Positions 32,845-63,517 of a stretch of 64,000 nt of DNA are shown here, one piece after another (positions within the stretch are counted from its first letter, which is position 1; each line of letters begins with the position of its first letter). The translations under genes and the position numbers were made by a program. Origin of the DNA: Candidatus Bathyarchaeota archaeon (GTDB lineage: Archaea; Thermoproteota; Bathyarchaeia; Bathyarchaeales; DTEX01); assembly GCA_963714275.1 (NCBI GenBank), contig CAVQNT010000004.1, positions 63,071-127,070 on the forward strand, read 5' to 3'. Below the pieces are notes generated by a model, which was not told where the DNA came from, ran no database searches, and saw only the letters and a program-made list of their open reading frames with translations.

Positions 32845-32980
32845 CAATCCAAAATTACATTTAGATAAGAGATAAACTATTGAAACCTTGATTAACGAAG
32901 AGGCTTTGTTATTCGCCAAATTTCTGAGACATGAACGAAAAACATGGACGCCGAGAGTTGCCAATCTAGAAAACCAATGA
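32845..32980 (+). pseudogene. cas1: Cas1 (casposase) 3'-terminal remnant no. 1
   Basis: 32885..32980 translates to TLINEEALLFAKFLRHERKTWTPRVANLENQ*. The intact Cas1 C-terminus is TLINEEALLFAKFLRNERETWIPRTVLP*. Nucleotide similarity continues weakly upstream, with an in-frame stop. There is no start codon and no N-terminal part. Confidence 0.8.
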
Positions 32981-35933: not shown

Positions 35934-36176
35934 AGCTAGCTATTTGTGTGTGTTTTTTGTTTGTGTTTTTTAGAGAGAGTGTATGTATGTGAGTGAATGA
36001 GAGAAGGAAAGCAAGAGCGTATAAGAGAATTAGTGTGTGTGGGGATTAAATTTTAATCTTTCTCTCTCTCTCGTACGTGTTCTCGTTCTTTCCCAGATAC
36101 TCCCTTGTATTCCCTCACTCCCACTTACGTATAGCGCGCGCGCACGCACGCACACAACAAGCACACGCACAAAAAA
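35934..36176. repeat. Left terminal inverted repeat (near-perfect core 36042-36176)
   Basis: 36042-36176 is the reverse complement of 41971-42105, with one mismatch (position 36051, the centre of GATTAAATTTTAATC). The outer part, 35934-36041, aligns to the right arm only with indels. Confidence 0.9.
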
Positions 36177-36324
36177 ACACTAGATTCTAGACACATTGAA
36201 CTGTGTATGTATACTTTGGTGCGGGCGGCGTAATTTGAACCGAAGTTTTGTTACCACCATGAAGACCACGCACATACCATATATAACTAGATAATACTTA
36301 TGTGACTTAGAAGGTTATATTGCT

Positions 36325-37134
36325 GTGCGAGTTCCAGAGGAAGTTCGCCAATGTGTTGCATTCATTGGTCTTCCTAACTCAACTGGTCAAGTGAGTTTTA
36401 CGGGTACTGCTTTCTTTGTAGCTATGCCTTTGAGTATAAAAGGTAGGTCGATTTGTTATTTAGTAACCGCTAAGCATGTTGCTGATAAGCTAGAAAACAA
36501 AATATCTTATCTCCGAATAAACACCAAAGACGGAAAATCAATGCCACTCCAACTTGATGAGGTAAGATGGTTTTCTCATCCTACTGATAGCTCGGTTGAC
36601 ATTGCAGTCTTACCCTACTCTCCACCTTTGAATGTTGAATACAAGTTTGTCCCAGTTGATCTGTTTCTCTCGGATGACATAATACAAAAAGAAAATATTG
36701 GTGTCGGCGATGAAGTATTTATTACGGGTCTATTTGCTCATGTGAGCGGCTCTCAAAGAAATCTTCCGATAGTACGAATGGGTAATATCGCCATGATGCC
36801 TGATGAAATCATTCCCACAGATCTGGGTAACATCGAGGCATATTTAATCGAAGCCAGATCTATTGGAGGCTTGAGTGGTTCTCCTGCTTTTGTTCGAGCG
36901 ATATCGGGACGTCGTTATTACTTCCTTGGACTAATGCATGGGCATTGGGAAATCCCTCCATATATGAAGAATGATTTATTGATGAATGAAGAACTTTTTG
37001 GAAAAGTTAATATGGGCATCGCAATTGTCATACCAGCAAAAAGGATATTAGAGGTTCTTAATCAGCCAGAATTGATTGCACGAAGAGAAAGGGCAGAAAG
37101 GAATTTAGAAAAGACTGATAAGAACACCCCTTAA
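36325..37134 (+). CDS. Trypsin-like (chymotrypsin-fold) serine protease
   Basis: 269 aa. Catalytic triad contexts LVTAKHV (His), SVDIAVL (Asp), GGLSGSPAF (Ser). Convergent with cas1; the two stop codons overlap in CTTAAG (37131-37134). Confidence 0.75.
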   Translation: MRVPEEVRQCVAFIGLPNSTGQVSFTGTAFFVAMPLSIKGRSICYLVTAKHVADKLENKISYLRINTKDGKSMPLQLDEVRWFSHPTDSSVDIAVLPYSPPLNVEYKFVPVDLFLSDDIIQKENIGVGDEVFITGLFAHVSGSQRNLPIVRMGNIAMMPDEIIPTDLGNIEAYLIEARSIGGLSGSPAFVRAISGRRYYFLGLMHGHWEIPPYMKNDLLMNEELFGKVNMGIAIVIPAKRILEVLNQPELIARRERAERNLEKTDKNTP

Positions 37135-38165
37135 GGCAAAACAGTTCTCGGAATCCATGTTTCCCTTTCATTCCTCAGAAACTTAGCGAACAGCAAGGCT
37201 TCTTCATTAATCAACGTATTCAGCGTTTGTCTCTTCCCAACCTTGATTCTCGGAATATCAACCATACGTTCAAACAATAACCCTAGAGCCTCAGCCAATT
37301 CATTAGTTTCATATTCGCATAAATGAATCTTTTTTCCCATTCTGAGATGCATCATAAAATCTGTTACAAGCACGAAGTCGTTCTTATGATACCTAGAACA
37401 GCGTTCTATCAATAAATCGTCTATGAGGTAACGGTACAATTCTTGGAAATCGCATACTAAGCTAGGCTTGCCAAACTGTACACTGTGCAAGAAGCCTAAG
37501 TAAGGTTCAAGTTTTGCCTTCAACAGCGCCTTATGAACTCTACATCGCAATACATAGTATCCAAAATTGAAAACGTTGTTTATTCCATCGTAAGCCTTGT
37601 ATGTCATTCTTCTTTTAGGTCTAATCTTTTCAGGAAATAAGCTGAAAATCTGGTTAAAGTAGTGTTCAGAAGACTTTCCTTCAAGACCATTAATTTTCCT
37701 TCTGAAAGATTCATTCCTAGACGATTCCAACCTTTCGATATGGCTTTCTAAATTTGGATCAATAGGCAATAAACCATATTTCCTTAAAACTCTCCTCTGT
37801 CCCTCAATTTTGCATAAAACTAATTGTTTAGTGATATAGACGCTCTTTCCATTCTTCAGAGCTTGATACTGCGCTATCCGAGTTTTGACATGACTATCGT
37901 CTTCAATGTTTTTCAGAACTGCTACAACCCTGTTTTTCTTTGTCATGATATAAGTGTCGATATTCCATAATGCAAGGTCAATTAAAGCGTCAACTGAAAC
38001 GTAATTTCCACTCCTGAGGATGCATTCGCCTATTTCCTTTTCAAAATGTGGATAACGAGTAATATTTCCCGTCTTATCTCGAGATTCAAAACAGCCTTCT
38101 CCCCTACCCAAATAAGAACCATAACCATCTAATGTCAATCGTAAGATTTTTGTACCACGAACCAT
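37131..38165 (-). CDS. cas1: Cas1 family integrase (casposase-like, solo)
   Basis: Intact 344 aa. LTLDGYGSYLGRGEGCF (N-terminal beta domain), LEGKSSEHYF, NNVFNFGYYVLRCRV, LEPYLGFLHS, PSLVCDFQELYRYLIDD (conserved E/H/D-E metal-binding set). Confidence 0.9.
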   Translation of the reverse strand: MVRGTKILRLTLDGYGSYLGRGEGCFESRDKTGNITRYPHFEKEIGECILRSGNYVSVDALIDLALWNIDTYIMTKKNRVVAVLKNIEDDSHVKTRIAQYQALKNGKSVYITKQLVLCKIEGQRRVLRKYGLLPIDPNLESHIERLESSRNESFRRKINGLEGKSSEHYFNQIFSLFPEKIRPKRRMTYKAYDGINNVFNFGYYVLRCRVHKALLKAKLEPYLGFLHSVQFGKPSLVCDFQELYRYLIDDLLIERCSRYHKNDFVLVTDFMMHLRMGKKIHLCEYETNELAEALGLLFERMVDIPRIKVGKRQTLNTLINEEALLFAKFLRNERETWIPRTVLP

Positions 38166-38249
38166 TATATCACCCTCTTTTCATCACATAATCATAACGC
38201 AAAAATAATTTATAAATCTTGTGATGCTAAAGTAATGAGGATGTAGTGA

Positions 38250-38408
38250 ATGAGTCTTAAACTGAAAAGAACCCTGAGTGAATCAGGGCGAACTTTAGTT
38301 CTCCGACTACCAAAAGATGTTGAACGCTCTCTTTCACTTAAAGCTGGAGACCAAATTCATATTTGGGTTGAGAATGGAAGAATCATCATCGAGCCAATAA
38401 CGAGCTAG
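38250..38408 (+). CDS. AbrB/SpoVT(MazE)-like DNA-binding small protein
   Basis: Not in the track (52 aa). MSLKLKRTLSESGRTLVLRLPKDVERSLSLKAGDQIHIWVENGRIIIEPITS, the swapped-hairpin pattern (v.iPk.i...l.l..Gd.v.i....g.iii.p). Divergent from cas1 across an 84-bp AT-rich spacer. Confidence 0.65.
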   Translation: MSLKLKRTLSESGRTLVLRLPKDVERSLSLKAGDQIHIWVENGRIIIEPITS

Positions 38409-38415
38409 TTTCAAA

Positions 38416-38949
38416 TTAGTCTCCGATTTTAATAATGTCCGCAGTATAAGACATTTGAAGTTCATTTAATGTAACTATAGTCATTAACTCCTGCCACTCG
38501 ATCTCACCCAACGAAAGATATTCTCCAGAACCACCATTCTTTAATTCAAACTCAATTTCAGCAACAAAAAGCCCAAGAACCAATCTACAAGAACCGTGAC
38601 TTCGCATTAGACTACGGTATAGAAAGAAACTCTTGAGTTTAAGACTTATATTCAAAGTAGTTTCCAACCACTGCTTCACTTGAACCAAATCTGCAAAATT
38701 GAATTTAACAAAAATAGATTTCCTCATAAATTGTATTAGAACAGAGTAATCTGGATACTTGAAGAAAGTGTAACTTCTAAATGGGATTCTGAAATAGGCT
38801 ATTATTGATTTCTCTCCTGAATTACCTTTATGCGTTACATTATCTTTTATTAAAATGTACACACCTTCTTTGTTCGTAGGCAATTCGATCTCTGTTGAGC
38901 TCTCAAAAGTCACATGCCCGCCTTTGTATACTTCTTTCAATTTGACCAC
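38416..38949 (-). CDS. Hypothetical protein (element cargo)
   Basis: 177-aa ORF, no recognisable motif. Confidence 0.4.
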   Translation of the reverse strand: MVKLKEVYKGGHVTFESSTEIELPTNKEGVYILIKDNVTHKGNSGEKSIIAYFRIPFRSYTFFKYPDYSVLIQFMRKSIFVKFNFADLVQVKQWLETTLNISLKLKSFFLYRSLMRSHGSCRLVLGLFVAEIEFELKNGGSGEYLSLGEIEWQELMTIVTLNELQMSYTADIIKIGD

Positions 38950-39003
38950 CGAAAAACCGACTCGGTTGCAGATACAATATCTTCAGATTATGGTGATATA
39001 AAG

Positions 39004-39219
39004 ATGCGATTGGGTTTAACCGAGAGGCTGAAGGCAGATGCTCTGCGATTTCTAAATCAAACAACATTAGCGATCAGTGTCTCGGATTTAGCCAAAAACC
39101 TGAATGTTTCGTGGTCGACTGCGCGTCAAATCCTAACCGAATTAACGCTTGAAGGAAGAATTGAGTGCCAGAAGACCACCAACTGGAAAATCTACAAACC
39201 TAAAGAAAATGATAGGTAG
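39004..39219 (+). CDS. Winged helix-turn-helix DNA-binding protein
   Basis: Likely start is the Met at 39004 within track ORF 38914..39219. ISVSDLAKNLNVSWSTARQILTELTLEGRIECQKTTNWKIYKP. Confidence 0.6.
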   Translation: MRLGLTERLKADALRFLNQTTLAISVSDLAKNLNVSWSTARQILTELTLEGRIECQKTTNWKIYKPKENDR

Positions 39220-39237
39220 TGTCAGGGAGGCTAAGAT

Positions 39238-39561
39238 GTGAAGGCTGAAAACGAGAATTTAAATGAAATCCTTTGTACAACGGATGAGGACAGAAAAATC
39301 AAACAATATTTGAATGAGCGACTTGGACCAGAACCTGTAGTTGCAGGTTCTAGACGTAGGTGGGATTTCCTACAAAGATGTGCTTTTTACATCTATTCAG
39401 AGAAAGAAGTGTCTTTTGTCTACATAGTTAAGTGGTTTGCCAAAAACGGTGAATGCCTGAAGGTCAGAACGATTCTGGAAGATTACATTCAATACCTAAA
39501 CACTCTGGGAATTGTTGAGTTTAATGTAGGTACAAAGACAGTCAGGTGGAAGCAACAATGA
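39238..39561 (+). CDS. Hypothetical protein with wH-like C-terminus
   Basis: 107 aa. TILEDYIQYLNTLGIVEFNVGTKTVRW. Confidence 0.4.
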   Translation: MKAENENLNEILCTTDEDRKIKQYLNERLGPEPVVAGSRRRWDFLQRCAFYIYSEKEVSFVYIVKWFAKNGECLKVRTILEDYIQYLNTLGIVEFNVGTKTVRWKQQ

Positions 39562-40079
39562 GGTTTAATTTCAGGATTGTGAAGTTCGGATGGACATTTT
39601 TCTTTATGCTGGCTAAGACTCAGAGTTTGGAAGGCTTAACGTCTCTGCTGTCAGATGGCAGACATATAGTAATGTGGGATCTTGAAAACTGCAATCTAGA
39701 AGAAGCTTCAAGGATTTTGATAAGGGTTCAAAGGAAAAATAATCTTAGCCACATTTACATCGTAAGTGATGCCGAAGGCTCTTACCGCGCATGGTGTTTT
39801 TCAAGTGTTACTTTCAAAAAGTTCCTCCGCATCCTTGTAGACTCTCTTGAAATCATAGATTATTCGTTTTTCTATTACACGGTCAAAAGATTAAAGGCAA
39901 CATTGAGAACGAGCAATAAAAAGAAAAGACCGCCTCAACGATTGGTACGCGTTCTAGAATCTTACCCTACAGATTTTCCCATTAAAATGGAGAAAGTCAT
40001 CTATGACACTGGCTTAGTGAAAAGAGGTTACACTATTTCTTTAGGTGATCGGCTTGGATCAATTTCCAGAAGCGTTTAA
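39546..40079 (+). CDS. Hypothetical protein (possible replication-related, speculative)
   Basis: 177 aa (likely start 39558). Acidic HIVMWDLEN and IYIVSDAEGSYRAW segments loosely recall the DxD / sGxGxH spacing of AEP prim-pol proteins, but the His is absent. Confidence 0.35.
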   Translation: MEATMRFNFRIVKFGWTFFFMLAKTQSLEGLTSLLSDGRHIVMWDLENCNLEEASRILIRVQRKNNLSHIYIVSDAEGSYRAWCFSSVTFKKFLRILVDSLEIIDYSFFYYTVKRLKATLRTSNKKKRPPQRLVRVLESYPTDFPIKMEKVIYDTGLVKRGYTISLGDRLGSISRSV

Positions 40080-40348
40080 GCGATTTGAAAAAGTCGTAGA
40101 CACAGAAAACATAAAAAGCTTTGCAAAGTTGCAGTTAGCTTTCCGTTCTTGGGCAGGACGGAATTGGAAAGGTACGCCAAAGCAAAAAGAAGACTCTTAT
40201 GGCTGAAGCCCAAAAACATGGAATCCTGGCTCCGCCTGAAAGAGTGATTGCAACTTGGAGACGTGAAGATGTCAGAGTCGGAACGAAATCTCAAGTTAGA
40301 TACCGAGACATTAAATCAGGGCGCTTCATAAAGAACCCTTTCCAGTAG
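40045..40348 (+). CDS. Possible small gene split by a frameshift (40045..40206 and 40199..40348)
   Basis: Two short protein-like frames, FPEAFKRFEKVVDTENIKSFAKLQLAFRSWAGRNWKGTPKQ and MAEAQKHGILAPPERVIATWRREDVRVGTKSQVRYRDIKSGRF. Neither is in the track (under 60 aa). Confidence 0.25.
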
Positions 40349-40551
40349 TGTCTAAAATCAAATGATACACACAAAAACCCCAAAACAGCGCTTTAGCAAT
40401 GACATTGACATTGTCAAAGGCACTGCTAAGGGCCTTTAAATTGCGTCTATACTGTCTAGAAACTCGATTACTGTCTCTAAATGTCTAGAGATTGGAGTTT
40501 TTGTCTCAGAAAATGTTTTAAAGTCTTAATTTTAAGTAAAATATGATAGAA

Positions 40552-40722
40552 ATGTCTCAACTGACTGAAGTAGAACTTGCTGAAAGGATTATTCTCTTTC
40601 ATGATACCCAGTCACTTAGTTTTCGAAAAATTTCAAGGAAATTGACTGATGAAGGCATACAAGCGAGTAAAGACAAGGTTCGCAAGATCTATCTCCGATA
40701 CAGAGCTGCTAAAGGAATCTGA
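40552..40722 (+). CDS. Small HTH protein
   Basis: 56 aa, not in the track. MSQLTEVELAERIILFHDTQSLSFRKISRKLTDEGIQASKDKVRKIYLRYRAAKGI (resolvase/terminase-small-like HTH). Confidence 0.45.
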   Translation: MSQLTEVELAERIILFHDTQSLSFRKISRKLTDEGIQASKDKVRKIYLRYRAAKGI

Positions 40723-40741
40723 GATAGACCAGAAAGCGGTT

Positions 40742-41296
40742 ATGGACGAAGATCTTAAGGCGTTAGTTGAAAAAGAAAAGGAAGCTCAGAAAAAAGTCGA
40801 GCTTGCAAAAATCAAGAATGAAAAAAGAAGAAACATTTTAGATTTGCGCATTAAGGAGTTGGACTGGAGCCTCGAAGACCGTGAAAGGCTCTTTGCGGAT
40901 AGGCAAGAGCTCTTTTGGCTTATGAAGGAGATTTTGTGTACTCATGAGCCAGCTCTCTGGTTGCGGTTATTGGAATTTTCCAATGAAGAAAATGGGCTGG
41001 TAGATATTGTCCAAGAAGTGATCGGCAGCCAGACTCTCTATGAAGAGATGAGAGTAAGAAATGAAAAGGACAATGTGGAATATCTCCTAAATCATCACGT
41101 TGTATTAAGTATCGAAGACTGGTTGGTTAGTAAGCAAAGCTTCAAGTCAGAGGGATTACCAGAAAAAGCGAAAGGATCAGGGATCACAGAAGGAAGCGAC
41201 GAGGAAGATATTGTTTTAACGATCCCAGTTGATAACAATGTTCGGCGAATATTTCACTATTACAACGTTAAAAGGTCAATGTCATCTAAGTCATAG
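40742..41296 (+). CDS. Hypothetical coiled-coil protein
   Basis: Probable start is the Met at 40742 within track ORF 40649..41296. Charged K/E-rich N-terminus. Confidence 0.4.
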   Translation: MDEDLKALVEKEKEAQKKVELAKIKNEKRRNILDLRIKELDWSLEDRERLFADRQELFWLMKEILCTHEPALWLRLLEFSNEENGLVDIVQEVIGSQTLYEEMRVRNEKDNVEYLLNHHVVLSIEDWLVSKQSFKSEGLPEKAKGSGITEGSDEEDIVLTIPVDNNVRRIFHYYNVKRSMSSKS

Positions 41297-41441
41297 AGGA
41301 AGCATGTGCTAGTTGTATTGTCCTTCAGCCCAAAAAAAGATATTCTGGTAGGTGCTAACTTAACATAAAATATAGGTGCCAACTTCATGCTATCTCACTA
41401 TTTTATTATGGAAAACGACGGTAATAATATCGTGTAAATGG

Positions 41442-41957
41442 ATGGCTGTTGTTGAGATTAGTTGTCCTCGATGCGGTTCCGTTTCTCATTTAAAAAATGA
41501 AAAAACTAACGAGTATCGTTGTGACAATTGTAGCACGACGTTCGTACTTGTAGATACAATGAAGAAAGAAGTTGTTCGAGACACCAAAAGACATAATTGC
41601 CCTACTTGTGGGCGACCAGTATCTAGAACAGAAGCTTATGTCTGCACAGAATGCGGAACTGAGGACTTATGCAAGAATTGCTTGGTCGAAATTAATAATA
41701 AAATTGTCTGTATGGAATGTGCAAAAAAAGAAGGAAAAGCGTGCTATATTTGTGGCAAGAAAGCATGGTGGCATTGTGGTGTCTGTGGGCATACGGCATG
41801 TCGCAACCACGCTGACAGATTTAACTTAAAAGGTAATTACTTGTGTCCTAATTGTGGTGCCGTATGTAAAAATTGTTATGTTGAGAAAGTCGATTTTCTC
41901 GGTAAAACCTTCTACTGTAAGAAATGTGGGACAAAATTAACGCGTGGGAAATTATAA
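41442..41957 (+). CDS. Multi-zinc-ribbon protein (about 8 CxxC pairs)
   Basis: Probable start MAVVEISCPRCG at 41442 within track ORF 41376..41957. Repeated CxxC...CxxC units run throughout. Confidence 0.5.
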   Translation: MAVVEISCPRCGSVSHLKNEKTNEYRCDNCSTTFVLVDTMKKEVVRDTKRHNCPTCGRPVSRTEAYVCTECGTEDLCKNCLVEINNKIVCMECAKKEGKACYICGKKAWWHCGVCGHTACRNHADRFNLKGNYLCPNCGAVCKNCYVEKVDFLGKTFYCKKCGTKLTRGKL

Positions 41958-41970
41958 AACTAATTAGATC

Positions 41971-42181
41971 TTTTTTGTGCGTGTGCTTGTTGTGTGCGTG
42001 CGTGCGCGCGCGCTATACGTAAGTGGGAGTGAGGGAATACAAGGGAGTATCTGGGAAAGAACGAGAACACGTACGAGAGAGAGAGAAAGATTAAATTTTA
42101 ATCCCAAACCCAAACATATACTCTTATTTCCAATCATTCTCTCATTCTCTCTCTTATTACACATACACACAAAACTAAGTT
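41971..42181. repeat. Right terminal inverted repeat (near-perfect core 41971-42105)
   Basis: Reverse complement of 36042-36176 (134/135). The outer 42106-42181 aligns with the left arm only with indels. Track ORFs 41964..42332 and 41977..42267 are low-complexity translations of the repeat. Confidence 0.9.
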
Positions 42182-43046: not shown

Positions 43047-43189
43047 CGGAAAGCTTGCACATTGACATTGCTGCATTGAATGTACTGAAAAGCAATAAGC
43101 AAAGTAGACATGCAGAATGCAAGAATCAAAAGGGTATTTTATGCGTATATCCTTTCGAGTAGTTAGCTAGCTTAGCTAATTTAAGTAAC

Positions 43190-43690
43190 TTGTTTATAAT
43201 ATTTAAGAAAAGGGGTGGAGATATGATGGAAGAGTTCAGATTAGGAAATGAAGAAAAGATACTTTTAGATACTGTTACTGATGAGGATTATAAGGTTAGA
43301 CTTAAAAACAGAGTAGTTGTTACCAATCAACGATGCGTTTTCTTTAGAGTTTATGAAGTGCATCACAAAGCCAAAGCCATAAATCCCGCCACAGGAAAAA
43401 GCGAGGAAATAAAGCCCGAATTCAGAATAGAACAAGAAATAAAATTGAATAATATTAAGGAAACTTTTGCTCATTATTTTAATGGAAACGTATGCATAAA
43501 ATTTAAACTAACGAATGGACAGACAGCAATTTTTCCAATTTTTTCCTATTTAGATAGGGAATTAAGTTCCGCCTTAGATGTTTTAACACAAACAGCCTTC
43601 TCTGGGTCTGGTAGTCTTATGTTAATGATGATGGATGATATGTTTTTAGTTAATAGATTAGTGAGTTACATTAACAAATTGATAAAATAA
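43190..43690 (+). CDS. Hypothetical protein (AT-rich, possibly PH/GRAM-like)
   Basis: 166-aa ORF. No catalytic motif recognised. Confidence 0.35.
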   Translation: MFIIFKKRGGDMMEEFRLGNEEKILLDTVTDEDYKVRLKNRVVVTNQRCVFFRVYEVHHKAKAINPATGKSEEIKPEFRIEQEIKLNNIKETFAHYFNGNVCIKFKLTNGQTAIFPIFSYLDRELSSALDVLTQTAFSGSGSLMLMMMDDMFLVNRLVSYINKLIK

Positions 43691-52678: not shown

Positions 52679-55262
52679 ATGAAAGAGAAAAATAACAATG
52701 TAAAAAATCAATCAAGATTATTAAAAGTTAATTTGCCCATCCCATTTTACTGGTGGGCATTGCCGAAAGAAAAAATATTGGAAAGTCTACATGTCGATCC
52801 TAAGAATGGTCTATCAATCAAGCAAGTTCAAGAACACCGAGCGATTTTTGGTGCAAATGTCCTAAAGGAACTGAAACCCACGAGTATTTGGAGACTAGTA
52901 CTTGAAGGCATTAAACAGCCGATGATGGTTCTGCTACTATCAATCGCCGCTATTTCATTTATTTTCAGAGAACTTGTTGAAGGAGTGGTAATGATCTTTG
53001 TTGTCGCCGCATACATCTCGGTTGAGTTCATAAACAAGTTTCGATGCCGATCGCACCATGGCTCGGCTCAGAGAACTCACCCAACCCACCACCAAAGTCA
53101 TTCGAGAAGGCAAGGAACAGGAGATTCCCACAGCAGATGTGGTTGTTGGCGATCTGATAATACTCTCTGCTGGCGTTCGCGTCGCAGCTGATGCCCGGCT
53201 AATAGAATCAAGCGGTCTACTAGTGAATGAAGCCTCGCTGACAGGTGAATCACAGCCAGTAAGAAAAGAAGCTGGAGCGGAAGTTGCCGAAAAATCAAAT
53301 ATTGCTGAAAGGGTCAACTCTGTTTTCTCTGGTACAACAGTTTTTGACGGTGAAGGAAAGGCAGTTGTCTTGGCGGTTGGCGAGAAAAGTGAGCTCGGAA
53401 AAATTGCAGAAGAAGTAGGAACAGCTCAGAAAGAGCAGACGCCATTGCAGCAAGCGATGACAAGACTTGTGAAGAACCTAGCACTGTTCGTGGTCATTGT
53501 CAGTGCCATAATTCCAGCTAATCGGTTTTCTGCGCGGGCTTGACTTGCAGCAGATGGTGTTAACGTGGCTAGCCCTCACGTTTCTCATGGTGCCTGGTCA
53601 ACCTCCAGTTATCATTACGATGGCATTGGCCCTCGCCTCTTTTGAGCTGGCAAGAAAGAATGTTGTAGTGAAGCGTCTACGAGGCGCTGAGACACTTGGG
53701 ATCAGTAACATCGATTGTTACTGATAAGACTGGTACGTTAACTGAAAACAGGATGAGAGTTGAGAAATTCATTCTTGCCAGATGGAGAAGAGGTAGCCCC
53801 ACAAAAAATGCCTCAAGAACTTAAAGAAAAAATTTCACTTGCTCTTCCCGAATACCTCAATGACCCCACTGATGAAGCTGTAGCGCAGATACTTGAAAAG
53901 ACTTCACGAGAGAGAAGCAAAGCCCACTCTCCTTTGAAGGGTTTTCGGAAGGGCATCCATGGCGTACTCTAATCTACAAAAGTAGTGAGGGTTATGTTCA
54001 TGCAGTTGCTGGAAAACCAGAACTTCTAATCGAGTCCTCAACACTTAACTTTGAGAGAAAAGAACGATTGGGAAAAATCGTTACAGTCGAAGGCGATTTG
54101 GGGAAGAGGGTCGTTGCATATGCCACATTTGAATCAGAGATCCCAAAAAAGGACAAACTTGAAGGGATAGATTTCTTAGCATTGGCAGTGCTTGAAGACC
54201 CTGTTCGCGAAGGTGCGAAGGAAGCAGTTGCTGTTCTTACAGATGCTGGTATCAAAACCTATATTGTAACTGGAGATCATCCAGCGACTACAAAAGCCGT
54301 AGCAGAGAAAATAGGGCTGGCTGGGAAAATTGTTACAGGCGATCAACTAGAGAAAATGGATGAGAAGGAACTTGACGAGGTAATCCAGTCAGTTCGCCTT
54401 TTTGCTCGTACGTCGCCTCTGCAGAAACTCCGCCTAGTCAAGGCTCTTCAATCGCAAGGAGAAGAGGTGGCGGTGATAGGAGATGGCGTCAACGACGCTC
54501 CTGCAATCAAATCTGCCAATGTGGGCGTGGCGATGGGTGAGATTGGAACTGACCTTGCTAAAGAGACAGCGGATCTTGTACTGACTGATGACAATTATGT
54601 CCATATCCGTGATGGAGTCGCTATTGGAAGGAAGGCGATTGACAATTTCCGAAAAGGGTTGACGTACTACCTTTCGGCAAAAGCAATTCTCCTCTCTGTC
54701 TTCATCGTTCCTCTGGCTCTGGGTATTCCTTTCCCATTTGCACCGATTCACATTATTTTGATTGAGCTTTTGATGGATTTGGCCTCATCAACAATATTTG
54801 TCACCGAGGTCGCTGAACCAGACGTTTTGAAGCGCCACCCCCAGAAGATAGACGAGTATCTAAAACGCTCTATTTTGTTAAAGAATCTTTCAGAACGGAG
54901 TGGGTCTTGCAATAGGGATTTTGGCGATTTATCTTTCACTCTATCTTCCAGACTAGGAAATGTTGTTTTGGCACAGACAGCTGCTTTCGTAACGTGGCTT
55001 CTAGGACATATCTTTCTAGCGCTTAATTTGAAGCAGGAAAAGGTGTCGCTTCTTGAAACAGGGGATTTTCTCCAACCGCTTTGGCACTTTCTGGCTTCTG
55101 AGCATGGTTGTACTGACTATCTCAATAACCAATGTTGCCCCTGTTTTCCCATATATCAAGACAACTTCGCTTACCTCTATTAATATGGTCGGAGATCTTG
55201 TTTATTGTTATTGTTTCGACATTTTGGATCGAGACTCCGAAGCTGATGCGACTAGGTTTTAG
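52679..55262 (+). pseudogene. Cation-transporting P-type ATPase (type II-like), broken by about 6 or more frameshifts
   Basis: Fragments 52550..53191, 53058..53543, about 53540-53760, 53760..53972, 54068..55183 and 55053..55262. Cation_ATPase_N (LS.KQVQEHRAIFGANVL), TGES, DKTGTLTEN (read in a shifted frame near 53720), GDGVNDAPAIKSANVGVAMG. Confidence 0.8.
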
Positions 55263-58886: not shown

Positions 58887-58895
58887 CATTTTTTT

Positions 58896-58925
58896 TGGGA
58901 TTTGGGCTTAGGATTAAATTTAATA
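58896..58925. repeat. Solo copy of the casposon terminal module (G/T-rich tract + GATTAAATTTAAT)
   Basis: TTTGGGATTTGGGCTTAGG-ATTAAATTTAAT. The right arm of element 1, read outward-in, is TTTGGGTTTGGG-ATTAAAATTTAAT. Confidence 0.55.
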
Positions 58926-59077
58926 CATACCACTACCCGTAGTGAGCTTAGCTGAGCTTCTATATAGAACACATATATATATATTTAATACTTATTGCCA
59001 TGTCAAGAAGATTTAATAAATCATTAAGCTATTTTTATGATACATCAAATTTTTTCATCATTTAGGAAGATAGGCTT

Positions 59078-59386: not shown

Positions 59387-59644
59387 CAAATTAGGGGACA
59401 AAATCATGAACAGCGAAATACCTCAGTCACTACAGGTTATCCCCTATGTCTTGCTGGTTCAAACTAATCGAGAAAGATGGAAAAGAGCAGTCTGCAAGAA
59501 GCTGCTTTCAGTTATAGAATTTCTAAGTTAAATTGCAGGTAACAATCTAATTCCCAAACCCAATCTTTCTTGTTCTTTCTTTTATTCATGTTTTTTTACG
59601 ATAAGCTTTTATGAACATGCAACGAGTGAATTACTAGGAGAAGT

Positions 59645-59995
59645 TTGAAAATGTTTCTTGCTTCGAAATACTATATTAAGGCGGAAAAAACGGCTGAATT
59701 CCAGAAATGGCTCCTTTCTGACGACGCAAAGGACCTTATCAAGAAATTTGAAAAGGAAACAGGCTTCAAATACATTGACACATACTTCCCCATTCTTGGA
59801 TTTGGCGATGATGCTATTGTCGACTGGTATGAAATTCCCAATTGGGCTACTTTAGACAAGGTAAGGACGTCAAAAACTATGCAAGAGATGTCTGATAAGA
59901 CATGGGACTTCATGGATAATACGAGGTTTGTTTCAAGCGTGGTATATCGAGCAACTAGCGATGTTCAAGTCTTTGCCCCACCTAAGAAAAAATAA
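59645..59995 (+). CDS. Hypothetical protein
   Basis: 116-aa ORF, no motif recognised. Confidence 0.35.
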   Translation: MKMFLASKYYIKAEKTAEFQKWLLSDDAKDLIKKFEKETGFKYIDTYFPILGFGDDAIVDWYEIPNWATLDKVRTSKTMQEMSDKTWDFMDNTRFVSSVVYRATSDVQVFAPPKKK

Positions 59996-60663
59996 TCCAC
60001 CCCATTTCTCTTTTTGTGCGTGTGTGCATTAAAATTAATCTTTTTCTCTCAGACTATAGACTATCGATAAGTTTTTGAGCGAATCATATATAGAAGCCTA
60101 TTATCTGGGTGATTTTGAATGTCTGAAGGCGAAAAGGATTATTCTGATTTCATTAGTCACTTGGGAAGTATGAGTCACATTTTTTTTATTTTTTACAGGC
60201 TTTACTTTGACAGTGCTCGTAATATTCATCACTGGATTTTCTGACCCAAGCCCATTATTAATACAAGTTACATTGTTTCTCCTGTGTTTTCTACTTGATT
60301 TGTTTATCTTCTTACTGGGATGGATAAGCAACCTTGACATCTATTACATCAAAGACATACCTCCATACACAAAAGGAATGAGGATATGTAAGCTTTCTCG
60401 AATACTTAGGCATCAGCCTATTTGGCATAATAGTAGCTTTATTGTTTATTTTCTACAACCTTATTTTTCTGGCTTCAGCATCATTTACAATGTTTGCAGT
60501 TTTTCTCATCTTGAGTTACTTCTATATAACGAAACCACAAATGGAAATACGGAAAAAACAATCCTCAAAATCTAACCAGTAAAAATATTTTTATTTAGTG
60601 AGCTAGGCAATTATAAACAAGTTGCTTATATTAGTGAGTTGGCTGAACGGTTCGGGGTGAACC

Positions 60664-60798
60664 TATGACCACAGTAATGTTTGGTCTTGAATTTGTTCTT
60701 TTCCTAATTTGTTTGTTCATTTTCCTTTCTTCAATCATTGAGGTCTTCAATTATTATAGGGAACAGAAAGAAAGAAAAAAAAGTCAGAGGAAAAGATA
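60664..60798 (+). CDS. Possible small single-TM protein (44 aa)
   Basis: Not in the track. MTTVMFGLEFVLFLICLFIFLSSIIEVFNYYREQKERKKSQRKR. The nearby ORF 60207..60575 also looks like a frameshifted membrane protein. Confidence 0.25.
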
Positions 60799-60856
60799 AA
60801 ACAATTAGAGGAAACGTTGAAGCGATTAGAGAATGCCGACTCTTAAACTTTCGTGG

Positions 60857-60946
60857 TCAGAGTTGAACAATTCTTGGAATCCATGTTTCTCGTTCGCCAC
60901 GAAGGTATTTAGCGAACAAAAGAGCCTCTTCACAAATTAGCGTTTC
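60857..60946 (-). pseudogene. cas1: Cas1 (casposase) 3'-terminal remnant no. 2
   Basis: Translates to ETLICEEALLFAKYLRGERETWIPRIVQL*. The intact Cas1 reads NTLINEEALLFAKFLRNERETWIPRTVLP*. Homology stops exactly at an AGCTCAGCT motif (60948-60956). Confidence 0.8.
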
Positions 60947-61183
60947 AAGCTCAGCTAGTCTTTATACTAGCTTCATAAGTCTAAAATAGGGTGCATCTCA
61001 CACTTCAGAGGTAAATGTGATGTCAGTTATGACCACCTTGAAGGCGGAAATAGTGGAAAGAGATCTGAGGCTTAAAGCCAAGAAGTTTTGTAGTCTCGCA
61101 GATACATGCCTACACATAGGTCGGAACGAATGTGCTCAATGCCTTCAAAGCTCTCTTAAAGTTATTCTTCCTCCCCAGACTAC

Positions 61184-61924
61184 CTAAGTCAGCTTAGCTG
61201 AGGTGCTCAGTGAATCCAAGCCATCTTTTTGGAAATTTTGAATCTGTTTAATTTGAACATCGATCTTCAAAATTTCTTCCCGATTGTGTTGCATGCTTTT
61301 TTTAGCGTCTTCTTTGTTTCTTTCAAGCTTCGGTAGTAGATTAGCAATCTCTTCAATCTTCTTTCTTTTTTCTACTATCTCTTTTTCTAAAAGCTTCTTT
61401 TTTTCAAGTTTTTCTTGTATGTCATTTTGAAGGCTTTCATTTTCATCTTCTAGCTTTGGAAAAAGCTCGGTTACTTCAGTGATTCTTTCTTGCATCTGAT
61501 CAATATCTTTCTCTAAAAATTCTTTTTTTTCATCGAGTTTTGGAATTGACTCCGATATTGACTCGATCTTTGTCTTTATTCCCTCTCTAATTCTCTCATA
61601 CTCACCTAATATGTTTTTTAGCTGCGCTAACGTCTTATTTACATCCGTATTATCACGTATAATTTTTTCCCCGGATTTTTGAGCATTAAGAATCCCTTCT
61701 ATCAGCTCCTCTTTATGCCCCTTCTTTGAGATTCCGAGGCTAGAAGCCATCTTCCACAGTTCAGGCATCGACATCTGTAAGAATTTTTCTCTTTCAGAAG
61801 GTTTATTGGACATCTGAGGCTGTTCTTCATATTCTTGTTGCTCAGCTTCGTCCAACCATCTTTCCATATTTCTTTCAGTAGCATCCATTTGCTCTTCAGA
61901 CTTTTTTTCCTTAAATAAACCCAT
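61184..61924 (-). CDS. Coiled-coil protein with SAP/Rho-N-like motif
   Basis: 246 aa. MPELWKMASSLGISKKGHKEELIEGIL, followed by a long K/E-rich coiled coil. Confidence 0.45.
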   Translation of the reverse strand: MGLFKEKKSEEQMDATERNMERWLDEAEQQEYEEQPQMSNKPSEREKFLQMSMPELWKMASSLGISKKGHKEELIEGILNAQKSGEKIIRDNTDVNKTLAQLKNILGEYERIREGIKTKIESISESIPKLDEKKEFLEKDIDQMQERITEVTELFPKLEDENESLQNDIQEKLEKKKLLEKEIVEKRKKIEEIANLLPKLERNKEDAKKSMQHNREEILKIDVQIKQIQNFQKDGLDSLSTSAKLT

Positions 61925-62088
61925 TTATATCGCCTACGCTGACATTAAATAAAAAAAGATATTAGAATTATGAATACAGAGTAAGTATTCACACACCATA
62001 TTTCAAAAAATGTAATATTTATATGAAATATACATTTTATCAAGATATATAAAACCTAGAAAAGTAAAATAAAAATCCAGAAGCTCAG

Positions 62089-62307
62089 CTAGTTAGAAAA
62101 ATTTTTACCAAACTTAGACATTAACGAAAGACCTTGTTTATAGACTCTTTTTACATTGAAGTTCCTGTCGAAATGAACCTTAATCACTTCACAATCGGGA
62201 TTTGGACATATAAAATCTCGTTTCTGTCTACGTAATATTGAGCCGCACGATGGGCATTTTGGCTCAGCCTTTCTCAATTTTAAAACCCCATAAATGGAAT
62301 GAAACAA
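62089..62307 (-). CDS. Small zinc-ribbon protein
   Basis: 72 aa. CPSCGSILRRQKRDFICPNPDC. Confidence 0.45.
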   Translation of the reverse strand: MFHSIYGVLKLRKAEPKCPSCGSILRRQKRDFICPNPDCEVIKVHFDRNFNVKRVYKQGLSLMSKFGKNFSN

Positions 62308-62472
62308 AGGATATTAGGGTTTCGAACATTAGCAAGCTAGTATTTAGGAAGGAAGGAATTAAAATTTAATGCACACCACCAACCACCCAAGGTGTCGGGC
62401 CTAAAAAGGACTGATGTCTGGACGAAATTACAAAGCCTATGCATGGTAACTATGCATTTTTTGTTTTATTAA

Positions 62473-62660
62473 GTATCGTAGACTGATCTGATCTGTGTAA
62501 CAACCGATTTTCATTTTTGTGTAACAAACTGTAAATCGTAAAGACCTATCTGATTTGTTCATCATTCGAGTTTCAATTTTGAACAACAAACCATAATCCG
62601 AGAAGACCTGTCTGTTTTATGGCGCATTCATCCAGTTGTCTTGGGGCGCAAACCTTACCT
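62473..62660. repeat. Degenerate tandem array, three units of 61-62 bp
   Basis: Units start at about 62473, 62534 and 62595. The conserved part is ATCGTA-(A)AGACC-N-TCTGATTTGT ... AACAAAC. The variable 26-27 nt part is itself flanked by short unit-specific repeats. Confidence 0.6.
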
Positions 62661-62828
62661 GTTCCGTGAGGTGCAAAAGTTATTTTTTTATAAAGGCTGG
62701 CGTATTTTTTTGGGTTTGGGGGGCGCTGAGATTTTTATCTGTATTATTCCATTTTTGTTCGGTTGAGCTAAGCCGCCTTTTTTGGAGATAGCCATTCTCT
62801 GTTGACTCTGTCTAGATTCTTCTTTTTT

Positions 62829-63191
62829 TCAAAAAAGGCTTTTTTTTAGGCGTTCATACTCTTCTTCTAAACATTTATTTTTGATTTTCTTTGCGAATGT
62901 TGCAGTTTGCTCAAATGCTTTTGTCACGTTTTCGCAGGGGTAGTTCTTGCATTTTCCGCAGTTTTCGACACCTTTCTTCAATGCGCATTCTCGAACATAC
63001 ATTCTGTCACACTTTGTTCGCGAGAAACAGCCGGCGCAGGCCAGCTCTTCCGGTGGCACTATTTTGTTTCGGTAGCCAACTCTATACCACAAAGCTGCAA
63101 CTTTTTTTAATTGTTTCACATCACCACTTTGGGTTGCGACGTATCTTGGGCAAACGTTGCAGTCGTCGCCACAAAAACCCAACTTCTGCAT
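62829..63191 (-). CDS. DUF3795-like cysteine-rich protein
   Basis: 120 aa. FCGDDCNVCPRY at the N-terminus and CGKCKNYPCE later, typical of DUF3795. Confidence 0.65.
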   Translation of the reverse strand: MQKLGFCGDDCNVCPRYVATQSGDVKQLKKVAALWYRVGYRNKIVPPEELACAGCFSRTKCDRMYVRECALKKGVENCGKCKNYPCENVTKAFEQTATFAKKIKNKCLEEEYERLKKSLF

Positions 63192-63517
63192 AAACCTTCC
63201 TTTCCCATGATTCGTGTGTCTTCTAATTAACTTGTTGTATTTTTAAGTATAATTTTTCTTTATAAAGCAAGAAGCTAAGTGAGCTTAAAAATAAGAAGTG
63301 TTTAAGTTTTCGTAACGAAAAACCAAAACAAAAAAGTGAATTAGATGACGTATAAGCGAAGTAATAGAGAATCCCGAAAGACGCATCGAAGACACCCTAA
63401 AAAGAAGGAAAAAAGCTGAGCTAGGGAGAGGAAGTATTATAAAAATTCTTAGTTGGGTAATGAAGGGTTGCGAATACTAGCTGAGCTAAATATCATTCTT
63501 GAGGAGGTTAGGAGACA

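Follow-up and report, generated by a model that had tools for sequence, protein, structure and literature searches.

Casposons are self-synthesising transposons that encode Cas1, and they form families 1–4, with examples in Methanosarcina mazei and Aciduliprofundum boonei. Some site-specific hot spots of insertion develop into islands, as with Tn7 at attTn7 and with insertion sequence (IS) elements that target repetitive extragenic palindrome/bacterial interspersed mosaic element (REP/BIME) palindromes. Casposon integration gives target-site duplications (TSDs) of 14–15 bp (PMC9939771; PMC4779613). In Methanosarcina, tandem casposons that share one TSD occur together with relics consisting of a solo terminal inverted repeat (TIR), and inactivation of one copy is common (Krupovic et al. 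2016, PMC4779613). The searchable literature contained no description of a casposon or Cas1 transposon from Bathyarchaeia. Here, we analysed a stretch of 64,000 nucleotides from a Candidatus Bathyarchaeota archaeon (contig CAVQNT010000004.1; the window) and focused on a 2.4-kb block at 60.0–62.4 kb, in which the original prediction had seen a single degraded, non-autonomous derivative of a Cas1 element that is present intact in the same window. Our results suggest that this block is probably a dead, immobile scar of composite origin, located where a Cas1-encoding transposon family of Bathyarchaeia has an insertion hot spot; it would be a patchwork relic rather than a coherent non-autonomous element.

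Element–target junctions at both ends of the block

Both modules that bound the block are element–target junctions of the Cas1-element family. From left to right, GTGCGTGTGTGC, ATTAAAATTAAT (60028–60039), and CTTTTTCTCTC make up the left module, and GGAAGGAAGGA, ATTAAAATTTAAT (62358–62370), and GCACACCACCAACC make up the right one; the coordinates originally given for the two palindromes and their flanks were exact. In a catalogue of junctions in which the left type has the order G/T-core-CT and the right type the order GA-core-C/A, the site at 60028 was assigned to the left type and that at 62358 to the right type.

The nature of the palindrome was examined with a comparison set of 13 Cas1 elements from other Bathyarchaeia (fetched loci carry L numbers). 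The cores fit direct repeats better than inverted repeats in 11 of the 13 element pairs (mismatches as direct and inverted repeats: L007, 2 and 8; L034, 1 and 5; L023, 2 and 6; L008, 0 and 3). Since these asymmetric cores are directly repeated at both ends, the AT palindrome is a 13–15 bp target core that is duplicated on insertion and not a part of the inverted repeat. The block carries such a duplication, as ATTAAAATTTAAT repeats ATTAAAATT-AAT directly, apart from one indel; the left copy of the core (60028–60039) has 12 nt, with a 1-nt deletion in its T run, and the right copy (62358–62370) has 13 nt and the same AAAA/TTT asymmetry as the left copy. Metagenome contigs from related populations (95–99% identical; X numbers) were used as relatives, and a 39-nt unitig of X2 across the left junction has the full 13-nt core.

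The G/T-rich arm on the left (60013–60027) and the C/A-rich arm on the right (62371–62390) lie outside the inserted DNA, because such arms likewise flank single unoccupied cores. Twenty unoccupied G/T-core-C/A sites were found in the fetched Bathyarchaeia loci, for example, GTGTGTGTGGGG-CTAAAGTTTAA-CCCCCAAACCCAAA at L081:10390–10432, and the window itself holds another single core with such arms at 58890–58938. The palindrome and the G/T tract had been taken for the outer half of a TIR; this assignment did not hold, because the palindrome is the duplicated core and the tracts, which also occur at unoccupied cores, are outside the element. The left arm continues the T-rich 3′ flank of a host gene for a 114-aa protein, and the right arm is contiguous with a DUF3795 gene in the X1, X2, and X3 contigs and is 83% identical to the arm of a site at 58916–58938.

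Both strands of the 64-kb window were searched with the 13-mer pattern ATTAAAWTTWAAT, allowing up to one mismatch. The search gave 8 strand-matches, that is, four sites, compared with 1.67 in shuffled sequence (0 of 100 shuffles reached 8). Two of the four sites bound the intact element, and the others lie at 52720 and 62358; the copy at 60028 escaped the search solely because of its 1-nt deletion. Three further target-like sites, each with an arm and a core that are partly degenerate, were found at 58890–58938, 59538–59563, and 62705–62745, all within 4 kb of the block, so that cores recur every 0.4–2.3 kb. The cores are not identical, and no tandem or regularly spaced repeats that would point to a clustered regularly interspaced short palindromic repeat (CRISPR) array were found in the window. 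Scans of the window for transfer RNA (tRNA) genes and Rfam families gave no match, indicating that the target is not a tRNA. The family would insert into a 13–15 bp AT-rich near-palindromic core, such as ATTAAAnTTTAAT, usually between G/T-rich and C/A-rich arms, and by analogy with casposases, the core would be duplicated via staggered cuts of the Cas1 type. A candidate target for the family Cas1, with core and arms, is GTGTGTGGGG-ATTAAATTTTAAT-CCCAAACCCAAA.

On the left side, 60028–60050 is the genuine left end of an element. The polypyrimidine TIR start CTTTTTCTCTC (60040–60050, plus strand), beyond which no more of a TIR is recognizable, is the same as that at the left ends of L002, L003, L008, L012, L029, L039, L040, and L042. 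The adjoining 0.9 kb (60040–60952) is what remains, in truncated form, of the left terminus of a Cas1 element: the core and CTTTTTCTCTC are followed by the 3′ end of cas1, and homology ends at 60952. The cas1 remnant (60857–60949, minus strand) was identified by tblastn, translation, and a three-way alignment and consists of the last 31 codons and the stop. It is 82% identical over Cas1 residues 315–342 (60866–60949, minus strand, E = 7e-9) and reads ETLICEEALLFAKYLRGERETWIPRIVQL*, with the stop codon at the homologous position. The presence of this remnant was thereby confirmed, as was its orientation, which is the usual one of the family: its 3′ end faces the left core at a distance of ~820 nt, compared with ~1070 nt in the intact element. 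In the blastn analysis, the remnant matched the cas1 3′ ends of ~40 loci, and the homology stopped abruptly at ~60949–60952. A 4109-nt contig of X2 was 96% identical over 60810–60916. The small frameshifted membrane ORFs (open reading frames) that had been noticed in the block are one membrane-protein gene (60119–60582, plus strand), which two +1 frameshifts divide into three pieces in frames 2, 0, and 1 of the ORF list; in the X5 contigs (98–99% identical), 1-nt deletions at 60189 and 60390 restore one membrane ORF of 154 aa.

The host DNA to the left of the junction was compared with orthologous loci. Over 59572–60022, the 114-aa gene, ~80 nt upstream, and 27 nt downstream of it were conserved in L081–L089 (80–91% identity), and homology to L081–L085 ended at 60015–60022, 6 nt before the left core. 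Both flanks of this gene unit differ in every lineage examined, with a tyrosine-integrase gene upstream in L081. Downstream of the gene, TCCcCCnTTTCTCTTTTTTTGTGTG was kept in orthologues without the block. The 8-nt repeat CCACCCCA/CCACCCAA, which had been proposed as a possible TSD flanking the element, was rejected: the CCACCCCA region 3′ of the 114-aa gene stop is host flank conserved in orthologues that lack the block and therefore is not a duplication.

On the right side, 62346–62370 is a genuine right end of the (TCCT)n subtype. The right-terminal sequence (62296–62357, minus strand) ends in GGAAGGAAGGA and runs directly into the core; it resembles both ends of L023, which are of the (TCCT)n type, and the right end of L036, which shares TCCTTCCTTC(G)CTAAAT. 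A 192-nt X2 contig matched 62296–62370 (75 nt) with one mismatch and then continued into a different C/A flank, CCCCCAACCCAAACCC, and these terminal 75 nt had about twice the depth of the SAP gene of the block in X2. Because the right terminus is joined to a second flank and doubled in depth, it represents a genuine, repeated end of an element, delimited by the end of the core. Exact-pattern scans for the two termini gave 0 matches in viral contigs, and that for the right terminus gave 0 matches in metagenome contigs.

The two ends were then compared with each other by local alignment of 60040–60239 with the reverse complement of 62158–62357, using shuffled sequences as the background and the intact element as a control. 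The inner 200 nt of the block ends shared no inverted repeat (score 16 vs. 17.4 ± 2.4 in the shuffles, z = −0.6), whereas the control gave z = 94, and neither end matched the TIR of the intact element. The right terminus of the block belongs to a TIR subtype other than that of the left one: the ends are of two subtypes, CTTTTTCTCTC and TCCTTCCTTCC, whose first 11 nt differ in type, whereas real end pairs of the family agree over their first 10–20 nt. TIRs are absent from the block.

Middle segment and related contigs

Between the two remnants, the middle of the block is not element-specific. The SAP/coiled-coil segment (60953–62044, minus strand; gene at 61184–61924) behaves as a host-family gene. 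As predicted, this gene codes for a SAP-domain family protein, of 246 aa, and PF02037 is recorded on several homologues. The part at 60961–62044 was 96% identical in L090 and L091, with both flanks unrelated, and 95% identical in L093, with a breakpoint at 61200. In the distant genomes L092, L094, and L095, the SAP gene lies beside SMC_N-like and CdvA genes in a conserved chromosomal neighbourhood. The predicted zinc-ribbon gene is present as a 72-aa ORF (62089–62307, minus strand), whose zinc-ribbon matches in Pfam and NCBIfam were weak. In close relatives, this ORF and the SAP gene are linked, and diverged copies occur elsewhere: X5 was identical over 62087–62231, and X2, X6, and X7 contained ~85% identical copies of higher depth. 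One of these copies is separated by 16 nt from a GATTAAATTTTAAT core. A metagenome scan with the 72-aa protein found one short locus only, L093. The 246-aa, 72-aa, and membrane ORFs gave no tblastn match in 80 Cas1 loci; therefore, the ORFs of the block are not recurrent cargo of the family. Exact-protein look-ups returned no record for four proteins of the window or for P0188.

The related contigs separate the middle segment from the left remnant. In a 999-nt contig of X1 and a 1154-nt contig of X3, a stretch of 58 nt links position 59496 to 60953. These relatives lack 59497–60952 and, with it, the left module, the cas1 remnant, and the genes for the 114-aa and membrane proteins, whereas the order from the SAP gene through the zinc-ribbon ORF and the right module to the DUF3795 gene is uninterrupted in them. 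Gene contiguity in relatives had been named as an observation that would speak against a single element, and it was found for the right 1.4 kb of the block, because relatives carry 60953–62357 contiguous with host genes. Homology breakpoints in the relatives fall at cores. The arrangement in the window is real and not an assembly artefact, because independent metagenome contigs span the left junction (X14, 60011–60164, no mismatch), the 60952/60953 joint (X5), and the right junction (a 1587-nt contig of X1, 61731–63315). Decay is ongoing, as X14 has an additional 490-bp deletion (60307–60796) and the copy in the window has membrane-gene frameshifts that X5 lacks.

The segment 60953–62357 was also considered as a discrete element, given that it lies between two cores in X1 and X3 and that it has a 15-nt subterminal inverted repeat (60964–60978 and 62329–62343). 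We rejected this candidate as unproven, since the cores on either side of it are not directly repeated.

At the joint of element-derived DNA and the SAP segment lies the motif AGCTCAGCT (60948–60956), and the contigs of relatives start to match at 60953 (X1 and X3) or 60961 (L090 and L091). The palindromic motif AGCTNAGCT has 16 copies in the window compared with 1.24 expected, a 13-fold over-representation, with copies at, for example, 32996, 43169, 58945, 60948, 61191, 62082, and 63414. Most copies checked against the ORF list were intergenic and close to gene ends. Copies also lie at or near the homology breakpoints 60953/60961 and 61200, and the breakpoint at 62044 is ~40 nt from the copy at 62082. 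Possible functions of the motif are a signal for transcription, as a promoter or terminator, and a site of recombination. Separately, a 25-nt inverted repeat, ATTATAAACAAGTTGCTTATATTAG (92% complementary), was found at 43176–43200 and 60610–60634, in both cases upstream of small ORFs, and may be a shared promoter element.

Origin of the block

The left part of the block consists of a junction and a 0.9-kb remnant with the TIR start, the frameshifted cargo membrane gene, and the last 31 cas1 codons, and the right part consists of a junction and, up to 62357, at least 62 nt of a right terminus whose TIR subtype is a different one. The SAP/coiled-coil segment and the zinc-ribbon ORF between them are DNA that related strains carry without the left remnant. 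In the history that we propose, the locus would have been struck at least twice, or two remnants would have been joined, and later deletions would have removed the integrase, the conserved 177-aa gene of the family, and the long TIRs, presumably leaving no part that can be mobilised. A history of two hits or joined remnants has precedent because tandem casposons with a shared TSD and solo TIRs have been described (PMC4779613).

Several points weigh against this history. The two half-sites fit: GTGTGC-core and core-GCACAC are perfect complements with the same core variant and orientation, which favours one original site and is also expected from a single insertion. The SAP gene and the zinc-ribbon ORF could be captured cargo, because family members do capture host-like cargo (a PAS sensor in L042 and surface proteins in L023). 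A clean allele with the 114-aa gene, one core, and the DUF3795 gene was not found among the orthologous loci, in which synteny around the 114-aa gene is not conserved. The relatives may have undergone a deletion, or this strain may have gained DNA. Finally, the arms may belong to a motif of the host or be remains of old TIRs from a CA-type subfamily; the TIRs of L032 and L062 start with CACACA, and metagenomes contain the 100-nt left flank of the intact element in high copy number.

An alternative, which follows the original prediction, is that 60040–62357 is one degraded non-autonomous element; it would stem from a single insertion, its TIRs would have decayed to their first 11 nt, and the SAP gene and the zinc-ribbon ORF would be captured cargo. 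The junction types are complementary and in the right order, and the cores are direct repeats. Moreover, deletion of the block in silico restores the perfect extended palindromic site GTGTGC-ATTAAAATTTAAT-GCACAC (inverted pair 60022–60036 and 62362–62376, 93%), and non-autonomous members with host-like cargo exist (L042, L054, and L062). Both junctions and the cas1 remnant are real, but the ends share no inverted-repeat signal above base composition and differ in subtype, unlike the real pairs of the family. In addition, the cas1 remnant and the cores are too well kept for complete TIR decay, the relatives carry 60953–62357 without the left end, and the SAP gene has a conserved chromosomal context elsewhere. 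We therefore consider a single element unlikely. The block was not seen as a complete unit at any other site, and only its terminal 75 nt occur at a second site.

If only the left remnant were derived from an element, the right module would be an unoccupied G/T-core-C/A intergenic motif with a chance purine-rich left flank. This motif is common, with the three extra sites in the window and the 20 unoccupied ones in other loci, and the right junction is conserved in all relatives examined. However, GGAAGGAAGGA-core recurs as a type of right end, and its mirror image forms a left end in L023; L036 shares TCCTTCCTTC(G)CTAAAT, and the terminal 75 nt, at doubled depth in X2, are joined to a second, different C/A arm, which makes this explanation distinctly improbable. 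A chance resemblance of AT-rich palindromes and low-complexity intergenic tracts is effectively refuted: the tracts are indeed short and of low complexity, and many repeats of 14–20 nt arise by chance in 8 kb, but no shuffle reached the core count, dozens of loci in other genomes show these junction types again, the cas1 remnant was found with the E value given above, and the breakpoints of the relatives fall at cores. The composite scar accordingly remains the reading that we prefer.

A further, quite doubtful idea is that the cores at ~58915, 59545, 60028, 62358, and 62730 mark an array produced by repeated Cas1-mediated insertion beside an already duplicated core. Equally doubtful is its corollary that each core separates a unit, with 59552–60027 (the 114-aa gene) and 62371–62720 carrying inverted C/A…G/T arms. 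As an observation in its own right, each of these two stretches has the C/A arm on its left and the G/T arm on its right. If such an array existed, the Cas1 family would move or shuffle ordinary gene cassettes between repeat-like palindromic sites and would represent a natural intermediate between the target duplication of a transposon and a repeat-spacer array.

Parent family and comparison with known systems

The intact sibling element at 36042–42105 has a length of 6.06 kb and 135-nt TIRs that are 99% complementary, and it encodes a Cas1 of 344 aa (Pfam Cas_Cas1, 3e-41; TIGR00287, 139 bits). No open frame longer than 349 codons and no polymerase Pfam match were found in it, indicating that it has no family B DNA polymerase (PolB), and no such ORF was found in the block. 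PolB-sized ORFs (>400 aa) were absent from 13 of the 16 related units, with the 516-codon frame of L007 left unscanned; the large ORFs of L023 and L042 encode surface (beta-helix/immunoglobulin-like) and PAS proteins, respectively. No cas2 was found in the ORFs scanned, which were those of the intact element, the block, and their neighbours rather than of the whole window. Across the family, only Cas1 and a 177-aa ORF (39546–40079, plus strand) are conserved. The latter was present in 14 loci (37–61% identity) and had no sequence match in Pfam, NCBIfam, PHROG, or PDB; its single-sequence AlphaFold model (predicted local distance difference test score of 39.7) was unusable.

Ten elements were delimited with TIRs of 120–290 nt, and members of the family would be 4–10 kb long, with TIRs in this range and without a DNA polymerase gene. 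In 9 of the 10 (not L003), the TIR proper has a polypyrimidine or CA start (CTTTCTCTCTC, CTTTTTCTTC, or GCACACAC) just inside or overlapping a 13–15 bp AT-rich near-palindrome. True non-autonomous members were also found: L062:8225–11797 (3.6 kb) has 119-nt TIRs that are 100% identical and Cas1 residues 217–340 only, and L042:4147–8213 (4 kb) has 36-nt TIRs, identical cores, no cas1, and a cargo gene for an 858-aa PAS-domain protein. The family is abundant. In metagenomes, 2075 Cas1 homologues were found at E ≤ 1e-10, and the best 120 listed were all at least 67% identical; in species-representative genomes, the homologues were nearly all from Bathyarchaeia, and many loci hold only C-terminal cas1 fragments.

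Some side observations concern the sibling element and its relatives. Extra copies of the last ~40–80 nt of cas1 were seen at L002:6337–6417, L064:4758–4838, L062:9549–9608, and L023:1945–1982, near complete or partial cas1 genes of other genomes; the copies of L002 and L062 share one element with such a gene. Breakage or duplication seems to recur at the cas1 3′ end. For about a quarter of the listed Cas1 homologues, the longest contig was only ~5–6.5 kb, the size of one element, as would be expected if repeats in multiple copies interrupt the assemblies or, possibly, if free copies exist. The flanks of the intact element (35943–36041 and 42106–42175) are imperfect inverted copies of each other over ~70 nt, and the left flank had a metagenome depth of 15–145 compared with 5–25 for neighbouring genes, which suggests that the intact element sits inside older TIR-like relics. 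A second cas1 3′ remnant was found at 32849–32962 (plus strand; 66% identical over Cas1 residues 305–342, in-frame stop). It is followed by the motif AGCTAAGCT and adjoins an H+-pyrophosphatase gene, with no core motif nearby.

The relic itself is inert, and its junctions, read against related loci, help to show how a Cas1 family without a polymerase selects and duplicates its target. The family carries a Cas1 integrase and no polymerase gene, and despite its abundance no description of it was found. A Cas1 that recognizes and duplicates a short, repeat-like palindrome displays the behaviour proposed for the ancestor of CRISPR adaptation, and the family offers natural occupied, unoccupied, and decayed sites as a testable system for this idea on CRISPR origin. 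The block also serves as a warning that, in these genomes, a pair of terminal modules alone does not delimit one element.

Compared with known systems, the block is an ordinary terminal relic of an unusual family, which is casposon-like but, in the frames scanned, lacks the PolB that defines casposons. Like casposons, the parent family has a Cas1-family integrase, long TIRs, a TSD (13–15 bp), and a specific target that is reused. Unlike casposons, it has no family B polymerase in the intact sibling and related elements (the L007 frame aside, as it was not scanned), its sole other conserved gene is the 177-aa ORF without known relatives, its hosts are Bathyarchaeia, and its target is an AT-rich near-palindrome between arms and not a tRNA gene or the end of an elongation factor 2 (EF-2) gene; the block itself, with only 31 codons of cas1, encodes no Cas1-family integrase.

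The block resembles the solo TIRs and tandem arrays of Methanosarcina in that terminal remnants stay at the target after loss of the element body and the target is reused; on both sides, a terminal segment abuts the target core and the body is missing. It differs from those arrays in that its two remnants are of different TIR subtype and bracket a segment that relatives carry independently, and no complete partner is present at the locus. Miniature inverted-repeat transposable elements (MITEs) and other deletion derivatives of DNA transposons have lost the integrase and kept their ends and TSD, as is the case for L062 and L042 in this family. In contrast, the block has no matching TIRs, since neither end matches the other end or the TIR of the intact element, and it was not seen at other sites as a unit. 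With the hot spots of Tn7 and IS elements, the block shares a short, conserved, partly palindromic motif that is hit repeatedly, giving mosaic, strain-variable DNA beyond the sites, whereas the enzyme of this family is a Cas1 homologue.

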